Assembly: GCA_964554415.1 (NCBI GenBank)
Contig: CAZKON010000004.1
Location: forward strand, 1-24,000
Length of the DNA stretch: 24,000 nucleotides
Direction of reading: 5' to 3'
DNA from: Candidatus Woesearchaeota archaeon
GTDB taxonomy: Archaea; Nanobdellota; Nanobdellia; Pacearchaeales; GW2011-AR1
The notes beneath the pieces are model-generated. The model saw only the letters and a list, made by a program, of their open reading frames with translations. It had not been told where the DNA came from and searched no databases. This document shows positions 3,817-21,747 of this stretch, piece after piece (within the stretch, counting starts at the first letter, position 1; each line of letters opens with the position of its first letter). The position numbers and the translations under genes are program-made.

Positions 3817-4791
3817 ATGAAACTCATTAAGCAGGTTGTGGAAATCGGGAACGGCGCGGCAGTGTATGTGCCTAAAGAGTACCTTGGCCAGGTAGTGGCG
3901 CTTATTCTTCCTGAAGGAACTCGAGAAATCCAGCAACGCATTCTTACAGCTCTTGTGAGATATATGCCCAACATTCTTGGGGTATATCTGTACGGAAGCT
4001 ACGCGCGGGATGAGCAGCAGCCAGATTCAGATATTGATATTCTTGTCGTCACTAAAGAGAGAGATGCAACACTTAAAAGGCATCTGAATGATATCGACGC
4101 AAGAGTCCTTCCACTTGATGCAATCAGGAAAGCAATAAGAGAGCATCCTTTATTTATTGTGCCAGTCATTCGGGAAGCAAAAGTGTTATTAAATCCTGCT
4201 CTCTTGGAAGAGTTGCGCACTCTTCCATTCAATCGTGCACAATTTCAATGGCCCCTCAAAGAAGTCGAACGGACGGTAAAGATTATAGAGACTTTTCTTG
4301 CTTTGGATAGCGATACTGCACCCATTGCCCCCACACACCTGTATTCACTCATTCTGAGAATACGCGTCTGCTTCCTGATTGAATGCCTTTTACATAACAA
4401 GGCGTATACTCATAAACGCCTTAAGGAAAATCTGATGAAGCAGGGATTCAGGAGCGAAGCGATTGAGCGTTGGTTTTCAATCTATCGTGCAGTCAGAGAC
4501 AATGAAGAGCCGCGCATGCACATCAAAAAAACGATGCGCCCTCCGCACCTTAAAACCTCGAGAACTGCTGTTCTCGACGGCCGTCAAAAACCGAAGGTTT
4601 TTGAGGGGTGCGGTTTGGGGAGGCGCTCGTTTTTTGGATGCTCGGGGAGCAACTCCACCTTAAAAGGTGGAGTTTTCTGGAGGCTCCCCGACATAACAAA
4701 AGATGAGGTCTTAACTCTTATTTTATTTCTTAAGGCTTCGATAAAAAAACTCAGACATGAAACGAAAAAAACGGCTGGAAAAGGGTATTGA
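3817..4791 (+). CDS. Nucleotidyltransferase-domain (MNT-like) protein with AbrB/SpoVT-like N-terminus, interrupted in frame by a hairpin element
   Basis: Minimal NTase signature LGVYLYGSYARDEQQPDSDIDILVV (G-S ... D-x-D). The N-terminal MKLIKQVVEIGNGAAVYVPKEYLGQVV resembles an AbrB-type swapped hairpin. The helical C-terminal half is interrupted at about aa 241-291 by structured DNA. Confidence 0.75.
   Translation: MKLIKQVVEIGNGAAVYVPKEYLGQVVALILPEGTREIQQRILTALVRYMPNILGVYLYGSYARDEQQPDSDIDILVVTKERDATLKRHLNDIDARVLPLDAIRKAIREHPLFIVPVIREAKVLLNPALLEELRTLPFNRAQFQWPLKEVERTVKIIETFLALDSDTAPIAPTHLYSLILRIRVCFLIECLLHNKAYTHKRLKENLMKQGFRSEAIERWFSIYRAVRDNEEPRMHIKKTMRPPHLKTSRTAVLDGRQKPKVFEGCGLGRRSFFGCSGSNSTLKGGVFWRLPDITKDEVLTLILFLKASIKKLRHETKKTAGKGY
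4536..4691. repeat. Hairpin-cluster element, copy B, inside a CDS
   Basis: Helices 4536-4540/4622-4626 and 4543-4549/4607-4613 enclose hairpins 4558-4565/4570-4577 (loop TGCT) and 4584-4592/4596-4604 (loop GAA). Helix 4642-4650/4683-4691 encloses 4653-4659/4666-4672 (loop TTAAAA). Locally GC-rich relative to its surroundings. Confidence 0.7.
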
Positions 4792-4942
4792 ATCACTTGA
4801 AACGCAAATAGCGATTCATAAAGAAAAGCTAAAAGAGGCAGTTGAAGAAGGGGATGAAGATTTAATACGCTATTACGAGAAGGACATTGAACACTTTGAA
4901 CAGGAGAAGAAGAAAAAAGAAGGGTATTGGGAAAGTGAGTGA
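4757..4942 (+). CDS. Small charged coiled-coil protein (hypothetical)
   Basis: 61-aa ORF, Lys/Glu-rich with heptad-like pattern (LETQIAIHKEKLKEAVEEGDEDLIRYYEKDIEHFEQEKKKK). Overlaps the 3' end of the preceding ORF. No family recognised. Confidence 0.4.
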   Translation: MKRKKRLEKGIESLETQIAIHKEKLKEAVEEGDEDLIRYYEKDIEHFEQEKKKKEGYWESE

Positions 4943-4946
4943 TTTG

Positions 4947-5915
4947 TTAATCGAACACCATTTTCTCAGAAGGAAAGATATGATCTTCTTTCATGATGGC
5001 AGTCTCTACTTTTTGAATGCTTTTAGAAAACTCTTCAGTCAATGCGGAGATAATTTTGGTATATTCTACAAAACTCTTGCACATGATTTCCAATTCAATG
5101 TCCCAGGGAGAGATTTGTTTGAGCATGAAGAGGATGTTGTGGTGATGTAGCACATAGTTCATAAGACGATCAAGTTCTTGCTTGCTTAGATTTCTAAAAT
5201 AAAGAAACGTCTTGTAAAATTCATAGCCTAACTTTTGATAATTGAGGATGGCGGAGTATTTGACGATGACTTTTTGTTCTTCAAGACGGCGCATTCTTGT
5301 TCTCACAATGTCAACAGTTGTATTATTGTCGTGCGCAATTGCCGCGATATTCTCGCGGCTGTTCTTAAAAAGAGATTTGAGAACTTTGATGCTCATTGTA
5401 TCGAGTTTGATATTGGAGGGCCTGTCAAACATGGTGAGCCACTCGGTTTTTGCATGATGCAGGAACGTTTTATCGTGTGTATGCACACTCACGACGGTTG
5501 CGGTCGTGCTTTCATGGATGACTTCCTTAAACCGAGTAAATAATTCGTTTTTCAAGTCAAAAAATTCTTGTGTGTCTTTCACGAAAAATGTCGCGCCAAT
5601 GTTCCATGCACCTTCTGCCACTCCGAGCCAAAAGAGATGCTTATCTTTTTTGAGATATTCGAGGAGTTGTTTTTTCTTTATAGGAACATTTGCCAGTTTC
5701 AAATAAATTTTTGCTGTTTGGTAGCCGAGTTTTGTCGGGTCAAGCCAGGTGGTGAAGCCGAGAATGATTTCTTCTTCAAGCATACGTTTGATACGATAAC
5801 GCGCCGCTTCTTTGCTTTTGCCGATGAGTTTTGCTAAGCGCGTTTCTGGAATGCGCGCGTTTTTGTCGAGCTCGAAGAGGATGTGTTTGTCTATCTCGTC
5901 TATATTGTAAGGCAT
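4947..5915 (-). CDS. Tandem-duplicated Lrp/AsnC-family transcriptional regulator
   Basis: Two HTH_AsnC-like modules: IDKHILFELDKNARIPETRLAKLIGKSKEAARYRIKRMLEEEII and SIKVLKSLFKNSRENIAAIAHDNNTTVDIVRTRMRRLEEQKVI. Each is followed by a ...KLGY... segment and a RAM-like domain. Confidence 0.8.
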   Translation of the reverse strand: MPYNIDEIDKHILFELDKNARIPETRLAKLIGKSKEAARYRIKRMLEEEIILGFTTWLDPTKLGYQTAKIYLKLANVPIKKKQLLEYLKKDKHLFWLGVAEGAWNIGATFFVKDTQEFFDLKNELFTRFKEVIHESTTATVVSVHTHDKTFLHHAKTEWLTMFDRPSNIKLDTMSIKVLKSLFKNSRENIAAIAHDNNTTVDIVRTRMRRLEEQKVIVKYSAILNYQKLGYEFYKTFLYFRNLSKQELDRLMNYVLHHHNILFMLKQISPWDIELEIMCKSFVEYTKIISALTEEFSKSIQKVETAIMKEDHIFPSEKMVFD

Positions 5916-9192: not shown

Positions 9193-9214
9193 CAAACAAG
9201 AAGGAGAGGGGGGG

Positions 9215-16369: not shown

Positions 16370-16771
16370 CTATTCGCGCCCGAAAGGCTCCAACTTCAGC
16401 CCGGGAATACGCTCAAAATGATTTGTATTTCTTGTGAGAAGAGACTCATTCCGGGAAATACAGATAGCAGCAATCATGATATCCGTAAGTTCAATCATTG
16501 CTCCAGCAGCCTTGAGTTGTTCAAAAATCTCTGCTGCTTTCTCTGAAGCTTCAAGAGTAAAATTGAGAATTGCAACGTTATTCAAAAAAAGTTCAACTGC
16601 GTCTTTTTGGCTTTTCTTGCTGAGGCGAAGGTTTCCGCGATAGAGTTCAAATGAATTAATGCTCGTGGTAAAAAGAGGTTGTTCCCTATCTTTCAGTGAG
16701 GTAATCATCTCAAAAATAGAGCGCTCATTCTTAAGGTAATCAATGATAATATCAGTATCAAGGCAGACCAT
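16370..16771 (-). CDS. vapC: PIN-domain ribonuclease toxin VapC
   Basis: 133 aa with MVCLDTDIIIDY, SFELY, LTDIMIAA and TRNTNHF, the conserved PIN acidic positions. The start overlaps the antitoxin stop by 1 nt (TAATG). Confidence 0.85.
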   Translation of the reverse strand: MVCLDTDIIIDYLKNERSIFEMITSLKDREQPLFTTSINSFELYRGNLRLSKKSQKDAVELFLNNVAILNFTLEASEKAAEIFEQLKAAGAMIELTDIMIAAICISRNESLLTRNTNHFERIPGLKLEPFGRE

Positions 16772-16986
16772 TACTTAAATCTCCGTGATGGCATCTTCCT
16801 CTCATCGTACAACTCCTTCTTAATGCGATCCGCATCTTCTTTGCTCCAGGATCCGGCGAGTTCACGAAGTGTTTTTTTCTTTTTTTCGCGTACAATCTCT
16901 ATAACAATTTCTGAGAAAGATTTTTCTTCATCAATTTTGCGCAATTCATTGTATGCTTCATCGGAGATGCTGATGACTTTAACCAT
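16771..16986 (-). CDS. vapB: VapB-type antitoxin (ribbon-helix-helix-like)
   Basis: 71 aa. MVKVISISDEAYNELRKI...SFSEIVIEIV is typical of small archaeal VapB partners of PIN toxins. Translationally coupled to vapC. Confidence 0.7.
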   Translation of the reverse strand: MVKVISISDEAYNELRKIDEEKSFSEIVIEIVREKKKKTLRELAGSWSKEDADRIKKELYDERKMPSRRFK

Positions 16987-16991
16987 AAATG

Positions 16992-17003
16992 CATGTATAC
17001 ATG
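16992..17003. promoter_or_regulatory. Perfect 12-bp palindrome between TATA box and vapB start (candidate operator)
   Basis: CATGTATACATG lies between a TATA-like TTAAATAC (minus sense, about 17009-17016) and the vapB ATG (16986). Confidence 0.4.
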
Positions 17004-17227
17004 TATGTATTTAAGCCTTTCGATGATTCAACGATAAACTATGCTAACACTGGTTAAAAATGTCAAGACAATGCCCTTTGGGCATCTAATTGGTTTATTA
17101 ATTGCCTCTGGTTTTTCTAATATTATCAATCATTATTTCTAATGGAAAGCATTATTATTAATTAAAATATGACCTATAAAGCTATCTTCCTCCATAGGAA
17201 ATAAAATGGGGTTAAAGTTTATATTAC

Positions 17228-17710
17228 TTCAAGAACCACCCACTAAAGTGGGTGGCGTGTCGTGGTTCTTGAGCACACTCGAGAATCCTTTATTACTCCC
17301 TGCTTAAGCAGGGAGATTGCATGATGTATTATAGGATTCTCGATGTATCAGATAATGCATTAACCAAAAAGCTTGTGAATCTCCCCGCCCAAGGGTTTGC
17401 CTTCGGCAAATCCGCCTGCTGGCGGAGTGGGGCATCCAAGAAAACCAAGAACCGAAGCGGACTCATATTTGAGATAATTATCTCTTAAATAAAAGAAGAT
17501 GCTTGGGAAGTATAGAAGACTTTAGGGGTTCGTCAAGAACTTCGAGAATATGCTTATTCTCGACAGCTTCAGAAACCTCTTGTTTCTGACAGTGCTCAGA
17601 AATAGAATATTTCTGACATGCTCAAGAATTTGCCAATTCTTGACATCTGCTGATTCTTGAACGCATCCAAGAACCAGAGGTTCTTGGTGTGTCAAAGTCT
17701 TCTATACTAC
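17228..17710. repeat. Hairpin-cluster element, copy C (largest): composite nested hairpins, GC-rich three-hairpin module, and a 14-bp-closed tandem hairpin array
   Basis: 17229-17235/17266-17272 encloses 17236-17243/17248-17255 (loop TAAA). 17279-17288/17334-17343 (10 bp) encloses 17296-17303/17308-17315. Also 17396-17401/17405-17410 and 17411-17416/17421-17426 (loop TGCT). 17510-17523/17694-17707 (14 bp, perfect) encloses hairpins starting at 17542, 17569, 17596, 17622 and 17667. No ORF. Confidence 0.8.
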
Positions 17711-17721
17711 AAGCTAGATTT

Positions 17722-18651
17722 TTACTTATAACTAGATAATACCGAACGTAAAAAGCGCTGATCTACTGCATCAAATCCCAATGAATCATCCATATAAAAC
17801 ATAAGAGAAGTTGATTTTAGTTTTCCATCCTCATATAAATAATTTGAGCTTCGCCATGCGCCGACACCATTGCAATTATAGTAGCAGCCTGTTCCCTCGA
17901 GACAACCGATGCCTCTGTCTGTTTCATCACGGAAAGGAACACATCGCGTTTTATAAAATGAATCAATTTCAGTTCTCCAAAAACAATTATTATTTGACTT
18001 GCATAAATTTTCTGAAAGGTCTTTACAATAATCATAAAGCACACCAGAAGGTTCTTTTTGAGAATCTGTACACCATTTAGGACAACCATCAACGTCACAA
18101 TTAGGCATATCTTTCAAATTAAGACCATATCCATTAAATTCACCTCTTACTCGCTTTTGATCAGTTAATCCAAGTAAATGAGCAAACTCATGGACAGTTT
18201 CGATATGACCGTTACTACTAATAAGATTATCTAGAGAGATGGTAAGAGCAATCTTTCCCCCACCCCCCGACTTTCCCTTACCCACTGACTCCGCCCATCC
18301 TCCAGTTTTTTCTGAATCCTTATTATCCCAAATAATTATTGCATGATCATAAGGAATCTCTGATAAAGATAGCCAATCCTTCACGTCTGCTATACATTGA
18401 AAGGGATTATCAGCAAAATAACAATGTTTTTGTAAAAAGAAAGATTCAAGAGAAGGAGGCATTTTTTCAATTTTATAAAAATTAAACTTGTTTCTGTCTG
18501 ATTTAAAAGGTTCATAGTAAAGAATTCCCTTGTACTTACTCTCACTATCAATTTGCTCCAAAACATTCTTATCAAAATCCTCGGGATTAGAAAAATCAAG
18601 ACCGATAAATACGACATCTAACTTATCCTCGGGCTTTCCATTAATAAGCAC
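17722..18651 (-). CDS. Zinc metalloprotease domain protein (HExxH, peptidase M64-like) with Cys-rich C-terminus; probably the 3' part of a longer frameshifted gene
   Basis: HEFAHLLGLTD zincin motif preceded by an M64-like layout (DVVFIGLDF...PF...FNFYKIE...IIIWDN...GGWAE). The track start is a GTG with no signal peptide. The frame stays open upstream with no stop up to and beyond the G7 tract at 18849-18855, and contains no ATG. Confidence 0.7.
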   Translation of the reverse strand: MLINGKPEDKLDVVFIGLDFSNPEDFDKNVLEQIDSESKYKGILYYEPFKSDRNKFNFYKIEKMPPSLESFFLQKHCYFADNPFQCIADVKDWLSLSEIPYDHAIIIWDNKDSEKTGGWAESVGKGKSGGGGKIALTISLDNLISSNGHIETVHEFAHLLGLTDQKRVRGEFNGYGLNLKDMPNCDVDGCPKWCTDSQKEPSGVLYDYCKDLSENLCKSNNNCFWRTEIDSFYKTRCVPFRDETDRGIGCLEGTGCYYNCNGVGAWRSSNYLYEDGKLKSTSLMFYMDDSLGFDAVDQRFLRSVLSSYK

Positions 18652-18815
18652 TTTCTCATATACTGGAAAAGTAGATAAAAGACCTTTGCAATTGGCATCA
18701 CATTCTTGTTTAGTATAACATGAATTAGATAAATAAACATCACTCTTCTTACATCTATAACATATCTCCTCCTTAAAACAACCTTCACCACTTGTTTCTT
18801 GTTGAGACGGCTGAG

Positions 18816-21689
18816 CTACAGCTGGCGTACCTGACTGAGGAACATCTGCCCCCCCGTCCCACCGCCCCCAAACAATTTCCTGAAGAAGTTAATTATTTTC
18901 TCAAACAACCCTGCATCAACGCACTTCCCGCCCGCGCATACATTGCTCCCGCATTCATAGTTATTCTCACACGTCGCTTCTGCTGCTCTCTGCGCTTTCA
19001 TCGTCCCGCTCAATGCACAGTAATCCCCGCCTGCCCGCGTGCCAAATCCAATGCACTTGCTACTTCCATCGCTACTCGGCAAATTGCATCCGATTGTCGC
19101 GCATGAGTTGCTGCTTCCGCTTCCTCCACCGCTTCCTCCCCCGCCACTGCTTCCTCCGCTGCCAGATGTTCCCCCCGAACTACTGGTCCCGCTATAATAA
19201 ATAAATGCCGTACGCGGTGCACTTATAGAGCCTTTATGCAGAGCGACTATAGGGACATCACCACCAGTTGAACTGATAATATTATCTGTATTTGCAGGGT
19301 CAGAATAAGAAGATTGCCTCGTATAAATTTTGTTCACATCAACATAAGAAGAACTCCCGCTTCTTTGTTGACTCAACGTAATAATCGCCTCTTTGCCTGC
19401 CTCAAAATTCCCAGATACATCTTGTCCATGAACAACTAAGTGAAAATATTCAGAAAAATAAAAACGCGAAAGTGAGTTACCAATCGCACCTTGTTCAGTT
19501 GTACTACCATAAAGAGAATATCTTAAAGATTCATCTAATGTCGGAAGATAAATAGCAAGACCTTCCCGCGTGGCAAGCATATTAAACTTTATACGATTAT
19601 CTTGTGCGCTCACATAGACACTTTTCGTTCCCGAATTTATGTAAACCTCATCAATTTTCAAACTTACTAAATTATCAAAATTCACGATATCTCCTGCTTT
19701 CTTATCCCCCTTTGATGTCCATGCTCCATTGCTGTAATATTCAACATTAGTCTTGTTAGCAAACTCTTCTGCAGTATAGGAATTAAATCTAACAAGATAC
19801 GAAACAGGGTTACGAGAGTCATTAAGAGTCACAACCATATATCTATCGCCCCCAGTATAATTGTATAACACCCTACTCGTCATTGAACTTGTGACAAGGC
19901 GATTGCTAGGACTTTTACCTATACCAAGAAATGAACCAGAGGCATTAGTATACAATAAAGGCATCGTGACTTCTCCGCTTTTGATTGTTGTCTTTAATTG
20001 TAAGACATAACTTCCATCATTTGTGATAGTCGTAGTTTCTTTAAGGCTATTTGCGAGTTTATTAAGTTTCTCAAACTCTATCGCACTAGAACCTTCGCTT
20101 GTTGAATATGCAACACTAACACCTTCAGATGCACACGCACTGTCTTCAATAATGATATCTCCATCTGAAGGGTTGCAATTGACTGTTCGAAGAGTGCAAG
20201 TATTATCCTGAAGGGAAGACGAACCAGTACATGAGATTCCAAGAATTAAACATTTTCTTTTCTCAACTTTTCCTTCAGTTTTGGAAGAAATAAACGTGCG
20301 CATTTGAAGAAGCTGTAAATTAGTGGACTTATAGTTAATAGAAGTGTACAAATTACTTTCACTTTCTGATTTCACATCTTTTATAGAAAGCGCGCGCTCT
20401 TTACATGCTGTTTGAGAAAGCTTTTGGATTGCAGGCGCGTCACAAGATTCAGGAAGAAAAACAAGAGAAACCCTGCCCCAACCAAGTCCCAGTGGAGAAT
20501 TCTCAATGCCTTCAACAATTACTTTAATATTAGTCTCCGGGATTTTAAAGGATTCATATGCTCGAAGAGAGGCAGTATACTCCTTCTTATCATTCCCAAC
20601 TTTAGAAAAGTAAATCGCGGCACTTTCTCCGAAAGGTTGGGCATATACTGAAAAAGAAGTACCCATAATTCTCAAGTCAATTATCCCATCTTCAATTGTG
20701 ATTCGTGTGACATCGCACGATGCTGTTCCGCTTCCTCCGCTCGCCACGCATGCGCCATCAACACATCCATTTAAACAAGGATATTTCTCAAGTGCAGCAG
20801 TATCGGCAGAAGTGCAGAAATATTCAAAAACAACCGCACCTTCATCACTAACGCTGCAATAATCGGTCGCTTTACCGCCGTCTTTATTAACAAGTGTCCC
20901 TTTCACAAAGTAATTCTTTCCATTAGGAAATCCATCTCTTTCATCAGTATCTTTTGTGTCATCATCAGTGCACTGCGCTGTTCCGCTTCCTCCGCCTTGG
21001 TTCGGCGTTGTTGTCATTCCAGCAAGCTTCTTCTTTCCTTCACGGTATAAATCTTTCACAGCTTGCTCTGACAACGCATCTGCATACACGCGAACATCGT
21101 ACGCTCTGCCCTCAAAGTATCTATTGTCATAAGGCGCAGGCAAACCACAATCATGCCCGATGCATAAGTCACCTGTTGTACCGAGCGTGCCGGAAGCAGC
21201 AACGCTCGCTTCAAGCACTCCGCCACGATACAATGAAATAGTCGCGCCATCCCAAGTGCCAACCCAATGATCCCATGTGTTCAATGGAAGGCGATTCGCT
21301 CCAGAAGAAACCGAGTACCATGCATCATCCAAGAACACCCAGAATTTCACGCTCCCGTCTGTTTCCGCGCTTAAAATATAAGAGTTTCTCTTTGACACCC
21401 AGCTTCCAGTAATCTCATTGTTCCCTGTCCTGAGTGCCTTGGTATTAAACCATCCTCCGACAGTAACTGCTTTCTTCGATGTTTTTATATTGCTTGCAGA
21501 TGTAGTCCCATATGCACCGGAGCCATCGTAAGTTCGCACATCAGGAACTATAATCTGTGCAGAAGTTGAATAATCATCAATCACTTTTCCTGTGACTGTA
21601 AAAGGCCAAAACGCAGAAACAACACTGACACTCAAGACGAGCAATAACGCAAAGACCAGTGCAATAAAAACACTTCTTCCCTCTTTCAT
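18816..21689 (-). CDS. Giant secreted/surface protein: signal anchor, LamG (concanavalin-A-like lectin) domain, Cys-rich modules, Gly/Ser linker
   Basis: N-terminal SVFIALVFALLLVLSVSVVSA. LamG-like core ITGSWVSKRNSYILSAETDGSVKFWVFLDDAWYSV...WDHWVGTWDG...ISLYRGGV...GDLCIGHD...FEGRAYDVRVY. Cys-spaced modules (CTDDDTKD...DYC...EYFC...CLNGCVDGAC; CENNYECGSNVCAGGKC). Poly-G/S linker. Confidence 0.85.
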   Translation of the reverse strand: MKEGRSVFIALVFALLLVLSVSVVSAFWPFTVTGKVIDDYSTSAQIIVPDVRTYDGSGAYGTTSASNIKTSKKAVTVGGWFNTKALRTGNNEITGSWVSKRNSYILSAETDGSVKFWVFLDDAWYSVSSGANRLPLNTWDHWVGTWDGATISLYRGGVLEASVAASGTLGTTGDLCIGHDCGLPAPYDNRYFEGRAYDVRVYADALSEQAVKDLYREGKKKLAGMTTTPNQGGGSGTAQCTDDDTKDTDERDGFPNGKNYFVKGTLVNKDGGKATDYCSVSDEGAVVFEYFCTSADTAALEKYPCLNGCVDGACVASGGSGTASCDVTRITIEDGIIDLRIMGTSFSVYAQPFGESAAIYFSKVGNDKKEYTASLRAYESFKIPETNIKVIVEGIENSPLGLGWGRVSLVFLPESCDAPAIQKLSQTACKERALSIKDVKSESESNLYTSINYKSTNLQLLQMRTFISSKTEGKVEKRKCLILGISCTGSSSLQDNTCTLRTVNCNPSDGDIIIEDSACASEGVSVAYSTSEGSSAIEFEKLNKLANSLKETTTITNDGSYVLQLKTTIKSGEVTMPLLYTNASGSFLGIGKSPSNRLVTSSMTSRVLYNYTGGDRYMVVTLNDSRNPVSYLVRFNSYTAEEFANKTNVEYYSNGAWTSKGDKKAGDIVNFDNLVSLKIDEVYINSGTKSVYVSAQDNRIKFNMLATREGLAIYLPTLDESLRYSLYGSTTEQGAIGNSLSRFYFSEYFHLVVHGQDVSGNFEAGKEAIITLSQQRSGSSSYVDVNKIYTRQSSYSDPANTDNIISSTGGDVPIVALHKGSISAPRTAFIYYSGTSSSGGTSGSGGSSGGGGSGGGSGSSNSCATIGCNLPSSDGSSKCIGFGTRAGGDYCALSGTMKAQRAAEATCENNYECGSNVCAGGKCVDAGLFEKIINFFRKLFGGGGTGGQMFLSQVRQL

Positions 21690-21695
21690 TGTGTC

Positions 21696-21709
21696 AGAGA
21701 GAGAGAGAG
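21696..21709. repeat. (AG)7 / (CT)7 dinucleotide microsatellite between TATA box and start codon
   Basis: AGAGAGAGAGAGAG read directly. It lies between the ATG at 21689 and the TATA-like box at 21714-21726. Confidence 0.85.
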
Positions 21710-21713
21710 CGTC

Positions 21714-21726
21714 TATTTAAATATTT
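21714..21726 (-). promoter_or_regulatory. TATA-like box for the 957-aa LamG protein gene
   Basis: Minus-sense AAATATTTAAATA centred about 31 nt upstream of the ATG at 21689. Confidence 0.45.
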
Positions 21727-21747
21727 CTATGATGCATCGCCAAAAAA

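Follow-up and report, generated by a model that had tools for sequence, protein, structure and literature searches.

At one locus of a tiny uncultivated DPANN archaeon, the gene for a LamG surface protein is overlapped at its 3' end by a metalloprotease frame that has no start codon of its own, raising the question whether the two form a single gene and, if so, what separates them. We analysed the locus within a window of 24,000 nucleotides from the 853-kb, 84%-complete genome. A first-pass annotation of this window had pointed to a run of seven G residues (G7) between the two frames and offered three readings: programmed -1 frameshifting, a phase-variable homopolymer switch, and a sequencing or assembly error.

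Reading frames at the G7 run

The LamG open reading frame (ORF) encodes 957 residues on the minus strand (18816..21689). Translation and domain search give, in order, a signal peptide, a LamG domain, a Cys-rich middle, a G/S linker, a C-terminal Cys module, a Gly tail and the residues QMFLSQVRQL, followed by TAG. The putative N-terminal signal peptide or anchor (MKEGRSVFIALVFALLLVLSVSVVSA), judged from the composition of the translation, lies at 21612..21689, and the LamG (Laminin_G_3) domain at 21057..21527 (residues 55–211, E 7e-19), both on the minus strand. The G7 run, read directly from the sequence, occupies 18855..18849 of the minus strand (C7 at 18849-18855 on the plus strand), in the context ..TTG TTT GGG GGC GGT GGG ACG GGG GGG CAG ATG TTC CTC AGT CAG GTA CGC CAG CTG TAG. 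The 0-frame codons ACG GGG GGG place the run in the G_GGG_GGG register, which is a slippery heptamer of the X_XXY_YYZ type. The TAG that closes the ORF follows 11 codons past the run (18818..18816). The last 10 residues of the ORF, QMFLSQVRQL, are out of frame, and the C-terminus of the unfused 957-aa form reads ..GGGGTGGQMFLSQVRQL.

In the -1 frame of the same strand, a stop-to-stop open stretch of 388 codons covers 18888..17722. Both frames are open in an overlap of 73 nt (18816..18888), and the -1 frame contains no ATG, GTG or TTG ahead of a GTG at 18651. Past the run, 377 open codons lead into an M64-like zinc protease. A fused product would comprise 947 aa + 375 aa = 1322 aa, and its junction peptide would read ..LFGGGGTGGADVPQSG.., also given as ..KLFGGGGTGGADVPQSGTPAVAQPSQQETSGEGCFK... 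This is the arrangement of a split gene: two overlapping ORFs on the same strand in different frames, the downstream one start-less and homologous to other proteins upstream of any start codon. The first-pass annotation had claimed the slippery register, the TAG at 18816-18818, the continuation of the -1 frame into the metalloprotease and the length of the fusion; each agrees with the local sequence, the ORF coordinates and the translation.

The G7 run is the likeliest place of a one-base frame break, and a G8 run would be in frame. A G5 run 10 nt upstream (18865..18869, minus strand) is a less likely place for the change of frame. Together the two runs make a quadruplex-type motif (G3+N1-7 x4, 18849-18869), one of only 8 genome-wide. 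A codon-usage score, weakly informative across the junction, prefers the -1 frame from about 18880 on.

The protease frame begins upstream of the annotated start

The protease had been called as a 309-aa ORF from the GTG at 18649..18651, a codon that encodes a Val within the domain (..EKVLINGKPEDKLDVVF..). The phmmer alignments to five homologues (P0004, P0006, P0009, P0023 and P0039) start at query residues 14–44, and the GTG is residue 67. On the minus strand, the -1 frame opens with a linker rich in P, Q, S, T and A (ADVPQSGTPAVAQPSQQETSGEG, 18781..18849), which resembles the linkers located after the signal peptides of homologues; here too the codon-usage score is weak. A six-Cys module follows (CFKEEICYRCKKSDVYLSNSCYTKQECDANCKGLLS, 18673..18780). 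This module, which precedes the annotated GTG, is homologous to the Cys module at the N-terminus of P0004; 6/6 Cys align (E 5e-4). The M64-like zinc metalloprotease domain, with its Cys-rich C-terminal half and the stop codon, occupies 17722..18660. These alignments show that the protease frame is already coding well before the annotated GTG; the earlier description of an ORF with no ATG and an internal-looking GTG was correct.

An N-terminal signal or TM segment is present in 10/10 close homologues (43–53% identity), each the product of a stand-alone gene that includes a signal peptide, and is absent from the window ORF, in agreement with the earlier remark that the protease lacks one. The protease can be made and exported only by reading on from the LamG ORF.

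The domain itself is well preserved. Within the zinc-binding motif HEFAHLLGLTD (HExxHxxGxxD; 18160..18192, minus strand), residues H220, E221, H224, G227 and D230 are invariant in an 11-sequence alignment, and D230, downstream of HExxH, is probably the third zinc ligand. The window protease retains 68/68 of the columns invariant in that alignment. One conserved Cys (NNC.YDK) is substituted, which could be drift or beginning decay. Among 74 positions invariant in the other members, the window protease departs at 6, and other members depart at 0–6; used as a test for relaxed selection, such private deviations, within the range of the functional members, are not decisive.

The term 'M64-like', used in the first-pass annotation, finds weak support. 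In the domain search the window protease has no match to Pfam PF09471 above threshold, and two close homologues reach this profile at E 0.0028 at best. The link is transitive, through distant homologues that pass the PF09471 threshold (P0011, P0013, P0020, P0043 and P0025), and it is joined by the HExxH site. With Foldseek, the top 16 matches are M64 structures (4df9, 9qdi, 3p1v, 9qdh, 9ekk and 9i4z; best E 4e-7), to be read as a hint only, as AlphaFold modelled the protease piece poorly (pLDDT 53.5, TM about 0.3). Members of peptidase family M64, such as the Thomasclavelia ramosa IgA protease, Bacteroides BF3526 (PDB 4df9/9qdi) and BACOVA_00663 (PDB 3p1v), are HExxH zincins, as is the protein described here. 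Their motif is of the HEFGHSFGGLxDEY type, whereas that of the window protease is HEFAHLLGLTD. The Cys-rich C-terminal half of the window protease is specific to a small DPANN/CPR subfamily, unlike other M64 proteins.

LamG relatives end at the run

Comparison with relatives delimits the C-terminal module of the LamG protein (18849..19106, minus strand), which consists of a Cys-rich domain, an amphipathic helix ...GLFEKIINFFRKLFGG and the Gly tail GGTGG. This Cys/helix module is common among relatives. It forms the natural C-terminus in L015, L017, L020 and L024; in L022 and L027 it is internal and precedes a linker and further Cys domains, an order that makes a fusion behind it architecturally plausible. 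The orthologues in a JGI relative (P0018/L015, 80.6% nt identity) and in a genome of the same genus (G001) terminate LFGG*, and the LamG relative on a syntenic ENA contig (L040) terminates LFGGGGRGGQ plus a Gly tail. The LamG orthologues and syntenic relatives thus end exactly at the run, without a protease, and the protease module is therefore a lineage-specific appendage.

Fusions of LamG, module and protease were absent from a word-indexed search with the fused protein, a phmmer search of 1.84 billion representatives, locus scans of metagenomes and GTDB, and 61 related genomes, and the shift site and ORF overlap are conserved in no relative examined. The comparison of homologous loci, which had been proposed as a check, therefore returns relatives whose LamG gene ends at the run but none with a single fused ORF. 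Palindromic hairpin repeat copies lie just downstream of the protease stop (17507..17710); they belong to a dispersed repeat family and serve as context only. A 52-bp match of L015 to window 17645-17696 was considered as a synteny anchor around the insertion and rejected, as it belongs to this dispersed palindromic family.

One explanation of the locus is that the junction was never in frame. A protease lacking its start and signal codons would have been joined to the LamG 3' end by deletion or illegitimate recombination; the G7 run would then simply belong to the Gly tail, and the protease would be a non-functional remnant of recent origin. One event suffices for this, and the surroundings have the look of a hot spot for rearrangement and insertion: in relatives that share its flanking genes, the locus lacks the protease and the VapBC pair and has fewer repeats, and the same-genus LamG orthologue of G001 is located elsewhere in its genome (the synteny rests on L040 and G001). 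The stand-alone state of the close protease homologues, each with a signal peptide, also speaks for such a join, as does the 0-frame sequence ..LFGGGGTGGQ, which agrees with ..LFGGGGRGGQ of P0019 through the codon after the run. However, with 375 open codons and every invariant residue retained, such a join would have to have happened very recently. The -1-frame linker, moreover, begins right after the run and looks like a natural interdomain linker, and in-frame module shuffling is the norm in this protein family. We consider a junction that was never in frame rather improbable.

The G7 run is present in the DNA

The Logan contig SRR12113420_176534 (L039) is identical to window 19138..17657 over 1482 nt (100% identity, no gaps), G7 included. 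It was assembled from a single run, SRR12113420, by a different pipeline, and the two assemblies may share reads. G7 is the only tract length seen, in both assemblies, and no G8-type product occurs among 5.8 billion database proteins. The same G7 in an independent assembly makes an assembly error unlikely. A chimeric join at the G-rich junction was also considered and rejected: no 13-mer of the junction recurs, except in the conserved helix-coding part.

If the true tract were G8, the locus would be a plain, uninterrupted ORF of 1322 aa and the frame break an error of sequencing or consensus. Indel errors classically occur at homopolymers, the domain behind the run is intact, and both assemblies might derive from overlapping read sets. 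An error of this kind is nevertheless hard to reconcile with the identical G7 from the second pipeline and with the other 22 G/C runs of 7–8, which break no frame. The whole genome has just 7 candidate split ORF pairs, unlike what a homopolymer-error-prone assembly would give. Sequencing error, the last of the three first-pass readings, is thus disfavoured, and we regard it as highly unlikely. The DNA itself carries the frame break, a real homopolymer frameshift.

G/C runs in the genome and the function of the tract

The genome holds 19 G/C runs of length 7 and 4 of length 8, and G7 alone is unremarkable. A long open -1 frame follows 1 of these 23 runs of at least 7, the one studied here (377 codons); the other 22 give 2–73 codons. 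The open -1 frame at G7 goes well beyond chance. A scan of the whole genome for two ORFs on one strand, the downstream one start-less, gave only 7 candidates, 2 of which have a homopolymer in the overlap. A frame break occurs at 0/22 of the other G/C runs of at least 7, most of which lie inside ordinary ORFs (for example, a C8 in a gyrase-like ORF).

The possibility that the tract is a phase-variable contingency switch, raised in the first-pass annotation, would have slipped-strand mispairing interconvert G7 (LamG only) and G8 (LamG-protease), with both states retained in the population. The gene encodes a surface protein, and the tract coincides exactly with a domain boundary, which would make the product of either state a sensible one. 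The tract uses GGG twice, the rarest Gly codon (14.6% of Gly codons), whereas the Gly tail of L040 has mixed codons and no run. The LamG gene has a (CT)7 repeat between its ATG and a TATA-like box, searches for MutS_V and NucS_C domains found none in the 84%-complete genome, and the protease domain has stayed intact though out of frame. Set against these points, G7 is short for a contingency tract, and it is common to no relative. The single length in two assemblies and the lack of a G8-type protein among the database sequences likewise count against switching, and the other 22 runs of at least 7 are not enriched in the surface genes of the genome. No variation in length was seen, and we think a contingency switch distinctly unlikely.

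Programmed recoding, by -1 ribosomal frameshifting or transcriptional slippage, would let a stable G7 gene yield the 1322-aa form in a set proportion. The heptamer has the correct register, the -1 ORF is long, intact and without its own start, and a G-quadruplex-type motif spans the run. Low-level shifting on G7 is known in herpesvirus thymidine kinase, and -1 shifting in archaea and archaeal viruses (PMC5009743). The efficient heptamers of bacteria and haloarchaeal viruses, however, carry a second triplet rich in A/U, unlike G GGG GGG (PMC5009743), and the overlap, a hallmark of programmed sites (PMC3711429), is conserved in no relative. The check for a downstream stimulatory RNA structure was run and found none: the 109 nt downstream (18740-18848) have an MFE of -19.4 kcal/mol (z +0.83), and 153/200 shuffles fold as well. 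Four other ORFs contain the G_GGG_GGG register as well; in two of these, >300 and >900 codons are still to come, and efficient shifting there would be harmful. Of the earlier proposal of programmed frameshifting only the register stands, and we judge it most improbable.

More broadly, the tract could be a functional domain-level toggle that sets, by reversible G7/G8 slippage or low-level recoding, whether the LamG protein carries the M64-like protease. With the tract placed precisely where the ancestral protein naturally ended, both states of such a toggle would give working proteins. We regard this as unlikely.

A probable one-base slip in a composite gene

The break is most likely an ordinary homopolymer frameshift. 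The simplest reading, either a plain and perhaps recent slip or a domain added out of frame, was not among the three listed in the first-pass annotation. We suggest, at about an even chance, that a one-base slipped-strand indel in the Gly-tail homopolymer interrupts one composite gene for a 1322-aa surface protein. The composite would consist of the signal peptide, LamG, Cys-rich modules, the Cys/helix module ending LFGGGGTGG, the P/Q/S/T linker, the six-Cys module and the M64-like protease. Distant M64-like domains are likewise C-terminal in long surface proteins (P0043, P0025 and P0088). The frame would be broken by one base at G7 and restored by G8, and the slip was possibly aided by the apparent absence of MutS- and NucS-type mismatch repair.

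Since the LamG orthologues end precisely at the run, the G7 allele is predicted still to yield an orthologue-like LamG protein. The dominant genotype sampled would accordingly make a complete 957-aa protein with a 10-residue junk tail, and the protease module would be out of frame and untranslated, barring rare spontaneous slippage on the G run. The fusion may once have been in frame, with a recent slip; the lack of the fused arrangement in every relative counts against this. The intact protease domain implies that the break is recent, or compensated by reversion or recoding. The break may be reversible.

For annotation, the 309-aa 'GTG-start' protease would be a miscall, and the coding unit a frameshifted composite gene of 1322 aa. 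The locus would exemplify domain gain in modular DPANN surface proteins, with a protease of a DPANN/CPR subfamily added behind the usual C-terminal module, and homopolymers in Gly tails would make such additions easy to turn off. If the tract proved variable in length, it would help support homopolymer-based surface variation in archaea seemingly without mismatch repair.

Comparison with known systems

Poly-G/C contingency loci are known from Campylobacter jejuni, Neisseria, Haemophilus and Helicobacter pylori, and their tracts typically have at least 8 bases and are visibly polymorphic between reads and strains. As in these loci, a G/C run lies in a surface-associated gene and one base switches the frame. 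The present run differs in being a G7 of which one length is seen, in a genome with no enrichment of long runs in surface genes.

Programmed -1 frameshifting on X_XXY_YYZ heptamers occurs in dnaX, IS elements and the haloarchaeal-virus tail-assembly G-T genes, and candidates include archaeal Mg-chelatase (PMC5009743). The LamG locus shares with them the heptamer register and a 0-frame stop that overlaps a long start-less -1 ORF. In contrast to those systems, its heptamer is all G, has no stimulatory structure, is unconserved, and is tolerated in the same register within other ORFs. The 'savior indel' at G7 of herpesvirus thymidine kinase is compensated by low-level frameshifting (PMC5009743); that case concerns a eukaryotic virus under drug selection, whereas here the gene is archaeal and the full-length product hypothetical.

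Another known case is the poly(A) tract of Listeria monocytogenes inlA, where a homopolymer frameshift truncates a surface protein (Orsi et al. 2010, PMC2831843). The inlA tract is at the 5' end of its gene, whereas the poly-G run described here lies at a 3' domain boundary, in an archaeon, with no reversion observed. The truncated product here would also be a complete orthologue-like protein, with only the appended protease module lost. The two genes are alike in that slippage by one base within a short mononucleotide tract of a surface-protein gene yields a truncated product, a change potentially reversible at a rate far above that of point mutation.

The junction between the LamG surface protein and the protease frame

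The composite gene consists of a 957-aa LamG surface-protein ORF (21689..18816, minus strand) followed, in the -1 frame, by an M64-like protease ORF that lacks a start codon. The minus strand at the junction reads AAA TTG TTT GGG GGC GGT GGG ACG GGG GGG CAG ATG TTC CTC AGT CAG GTA CGC CAG CTG TAG. The G7 run lies at 18855..18849 and the TAG stop of the 957-aa ORF at 18818..18816, and the G_GGG_GGG register is set by the 0-frame codons ACG GGG GGG. The -1 frame is open on the minus strand from 18888 to 17722 and contains no ATG, GTG or TTG upstream of the GTG at 18651; when the last G is re-read, the fused product is 947 + 375 = 1322 aa. On re-reading, everything that the first-pass annotation had stated about the sequence (G7, register, stop, open -1 frame, absence of ATG, 1322 aa) was correct. 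Two of the eight quadruplex-type motifs (G3+N1-7 x4) in the 853-kb genome fall in the composite gene, with the minus strand G-rich: one (18849-18869, minus strand) spans the frameshift site, and the other (18257-18283, minus strand) lies within a Gly-rich insertion, GKGKSGGGG, unique to the window protease among its homologues.

The window is archaeal, encoding aRF1, an ATP-dependent DNA ligase and further archaeal genes, and the 853-kb genome is of the small size seen in DPANN archaea. The 957-aa protein has a signal-peptide-like N-terminus, a Laminin_G_3 domain (residues 55-211, by domain search), a long Cys-rich middle part, a G/S linker and a C-terminal module, C.NN[YF]EC.SN[VI]C...C[VI]..GL..KI..[FW]F[KR].LFG(G), which is widespread among related genomes. 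A (CT)7 repeat (21690-21727, minus strand) separates the ATG from an A/T-rich TATA-like box (atatttaaata) and is the gene's second simple-sequence tract.

The protease frame is coding upstream of its GTG

The -1 frame encodes, in order, a P/Q/S/T/A linker, a six-Cys module and a zincin domain of ~310 aa that carries the motif HEFAHLLGLTD and is Cys-rich in its C-terminal half. Homologue alignments (phmmer) begin at query residues 14-44, ahead of the GTG at residue 67. Over the 66 residues that precede it, the frame aligns with the N-terminal Cys module of the homologous protein P0004, with 6/6 Cys matched (E 5e-4, single comparison). All ten close homologues begin with a signal or TM segment of their own, which is followed by a variable linker/Cys region and then by the domain from ..NG...KLDVVFVP. 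The window protease has the linker, Cys module and domain, and neither a start nor a signal peptide, as first described; homology reaching upstream of the GTG also bears out its internal look. The start-less frame is thus coding upstream of the GTG, and the 309-aa gene call is a truncation artefact. The protease module can be made and exported only as an extension of the LamG ORF.

No stops occur over the 375 codons of the protease frame, and 68/68 invariant alignment columns are kept. At columns invariant in the other ten sequences the protease departs 6 times in 74, one departure being a lost conserved Cys; the other sequences range from 0 to 6, placing it at the top of the range, but inside it. 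By these measures the domain is intact. A Pfam search with the window zincin gave no match. Its close homologues (43-53% identity, 329-906 aa), one of them at a locus in a Saccharibacteria MAG (L033), form a small subfamily. More distant homologues score above the Peptidase_M64 threshold, and the top 16 Foldseek matches are all M64 structures (BF3526, BACOVA_00663, T. ramosa IgA protease), obtained with a poor structure model (pLDDT 53.5). The label 'M64-like' can therefore be kept as a reasonable description of the predicted mode of action, family membership being transitive only.

P0002 (485 aa, Thr-rich linker and Cys modules), a stand-alone close homologue, is encoded in an archaeal ribosomal-protein operon between uL4 and uL2 (contig L028, Ga0172366_10009067, 4027-5484). 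P0020 (711 aa, metagenomic) combines one signal peptide with two tandem M64-like domains that differ in subtype, HELGHSFGGLSDEY preceding HEFAHLLGLSDE.

The homologous locus in relatives

The JGI contig L015 shares 80.6% nucleotide identity over 1.2 kb and encodes a 733-aa orthologue ending ...FFKNLFGG*, with no protease after it. The orthologue in a same-genus genome likewise terminates LFGG*, at a different chromosomal position from that in the window. The ENA contig L040 has the window's gene order (KaiC-like gene, LamG/beta-helix gene, surface protein with the C-terminal module, DNA ligase). The surface protein there terminates in LFGGGGRGGQ and a mixed-codon Gly tail, and no protease is present in L040, where ~650 nt separate the surface-protein and ligase genes. 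Of the two arrangements envisaged at the outset, a single fused ORF and a separate protease gene, these relatives have neither. Because they have no protease, the module is lineage-specific, as are the hairpin repeats and the VapBC pair. The frame break falls exactly at the end of the ancestral protein, so that the G7 allele still yields an orthologue-like protein, with 10 junk residues at its end.

In two further relatives (L022 and L027) the C-terminal module is internal, with a P/E-rich linker and additional Cys domains behind it, and some surface proteins of 900-1800 aa end in distant M64-like domains. An in-frame LamG-protease fusion is therefore architecturally plausible.

A VapB/VapC (PIN) pair (16370-17010) and ~900 nt of palindromic hairpin repeats separate the surface-protein locus from the DNA ligase gene here, and both are absent from the syntenic L040. 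The locus is a hot spot of rearrangement and insertion.

The G7 run is present in a second assembly

An independent assembly was sought by exact-protein look-up, which returned a Logan contig of 1482 nt from a single run (SRR12113420_176534). It matches window positions 19138..17657 at 100% identity with 0 gaps, G7 run and stop codon included. Four other runs gave Logan contigs that are 100% identical to the window over the adjacent VapC-ligase stretch, so the population recurs in that study. No repeat able to cause a chimeric join is present at the junction.

The genome (853 kb, 40% GC, 44 contigs, 84% complete) contains 19 G/C7 and 4 G/C8 runs, and the G7 run by itself is unremarkable. The other 22 runs of at least seven lie mostly inside ordinary ORFs, including one C8 in a gyrase-like ORF; none has a frame break, and split ORFs are very few in the genome. 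With the same G7 in a second assembly and intact frames at the other 22 runs, the error reading of the first-pass annotation loses ground: an assembly error is unlikely, and a sequencing error very unlikely. A longer product of the G8 type was not found in the protein databases. A minority G8 allele may exist in the population, which is compatible with the contig data because contigs drop rare variants.

What stands out is the coincidence of G7 with the frame junction. The open -1 frame after this run is 377 codons long; at the other 22 runs it extends for 2-73 codons. Across the genome, 7 candidate same-strand ORF pairs with a start-less downstream partner were detected, and only two of them have a homopolymer in the overlap. 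The second of these is an A6 (contig C3, 21730-21787, minus strand; 186 + 135 codons). Elsewhere in the window, a plus-strand G7 at 9208-9214 precedes the start codon (9195) of a minus-strand class-I aminoacyl-tRNA synthetase gene by 13 nt, in the leader/promoter region and not in coding sequence.

Origin of the frame break

The simplest account is an ordinary slipped-strand indel in the Gly-tail homopolymer of the composite gene, and we give such a slip, in a once in-frame fusion, about an even chance of being correct. It is improbable that a single event instead placed the junction out of frame from the outset, leaving a remnant that was never translated.

An evolved phase-variable switch at the G tract is likewise improbable. 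A surface gene with a sensible product in both states would suit a contingency locus, as would the double use of GGG, the rarest Gly codon, and the (CT)7 repeat in the gene's promoter region. The 84%-complete genome yielded neither a MutS_V (PF00488) nor a NucS_C (PF01939) domain, which also fits a switch and suggests that canonical mismatch repair may be missing. Nevertheless, the tract is short, a single length is seen, and long G/C runs of this genome are not concentrated in surface genes.

Programmed -1 frameshifting, the remaining proposal, has only the register in its favour and little prospect of being right. The 109 nt downstream, the place for a stimulatory RNA structure, have no folding advantage over shuffled sequence (z +0.83). 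The overlap is kept in no relative, and four other ORFs of this genome carry a G run of at least seven in the same register. Two of these four have >300 and >900 codons left to read, which argues against efficient shifting. Efficient -1 sites in bacteria and haloarchaeal viruses have A/U-rich second triplets, and runs of 7 G are mentioned only for very low-level compensatory shifting (PMC5009743).

The distinctive points of the composite gene are a break at a domain boundary and a lineage-specific protease appendage.
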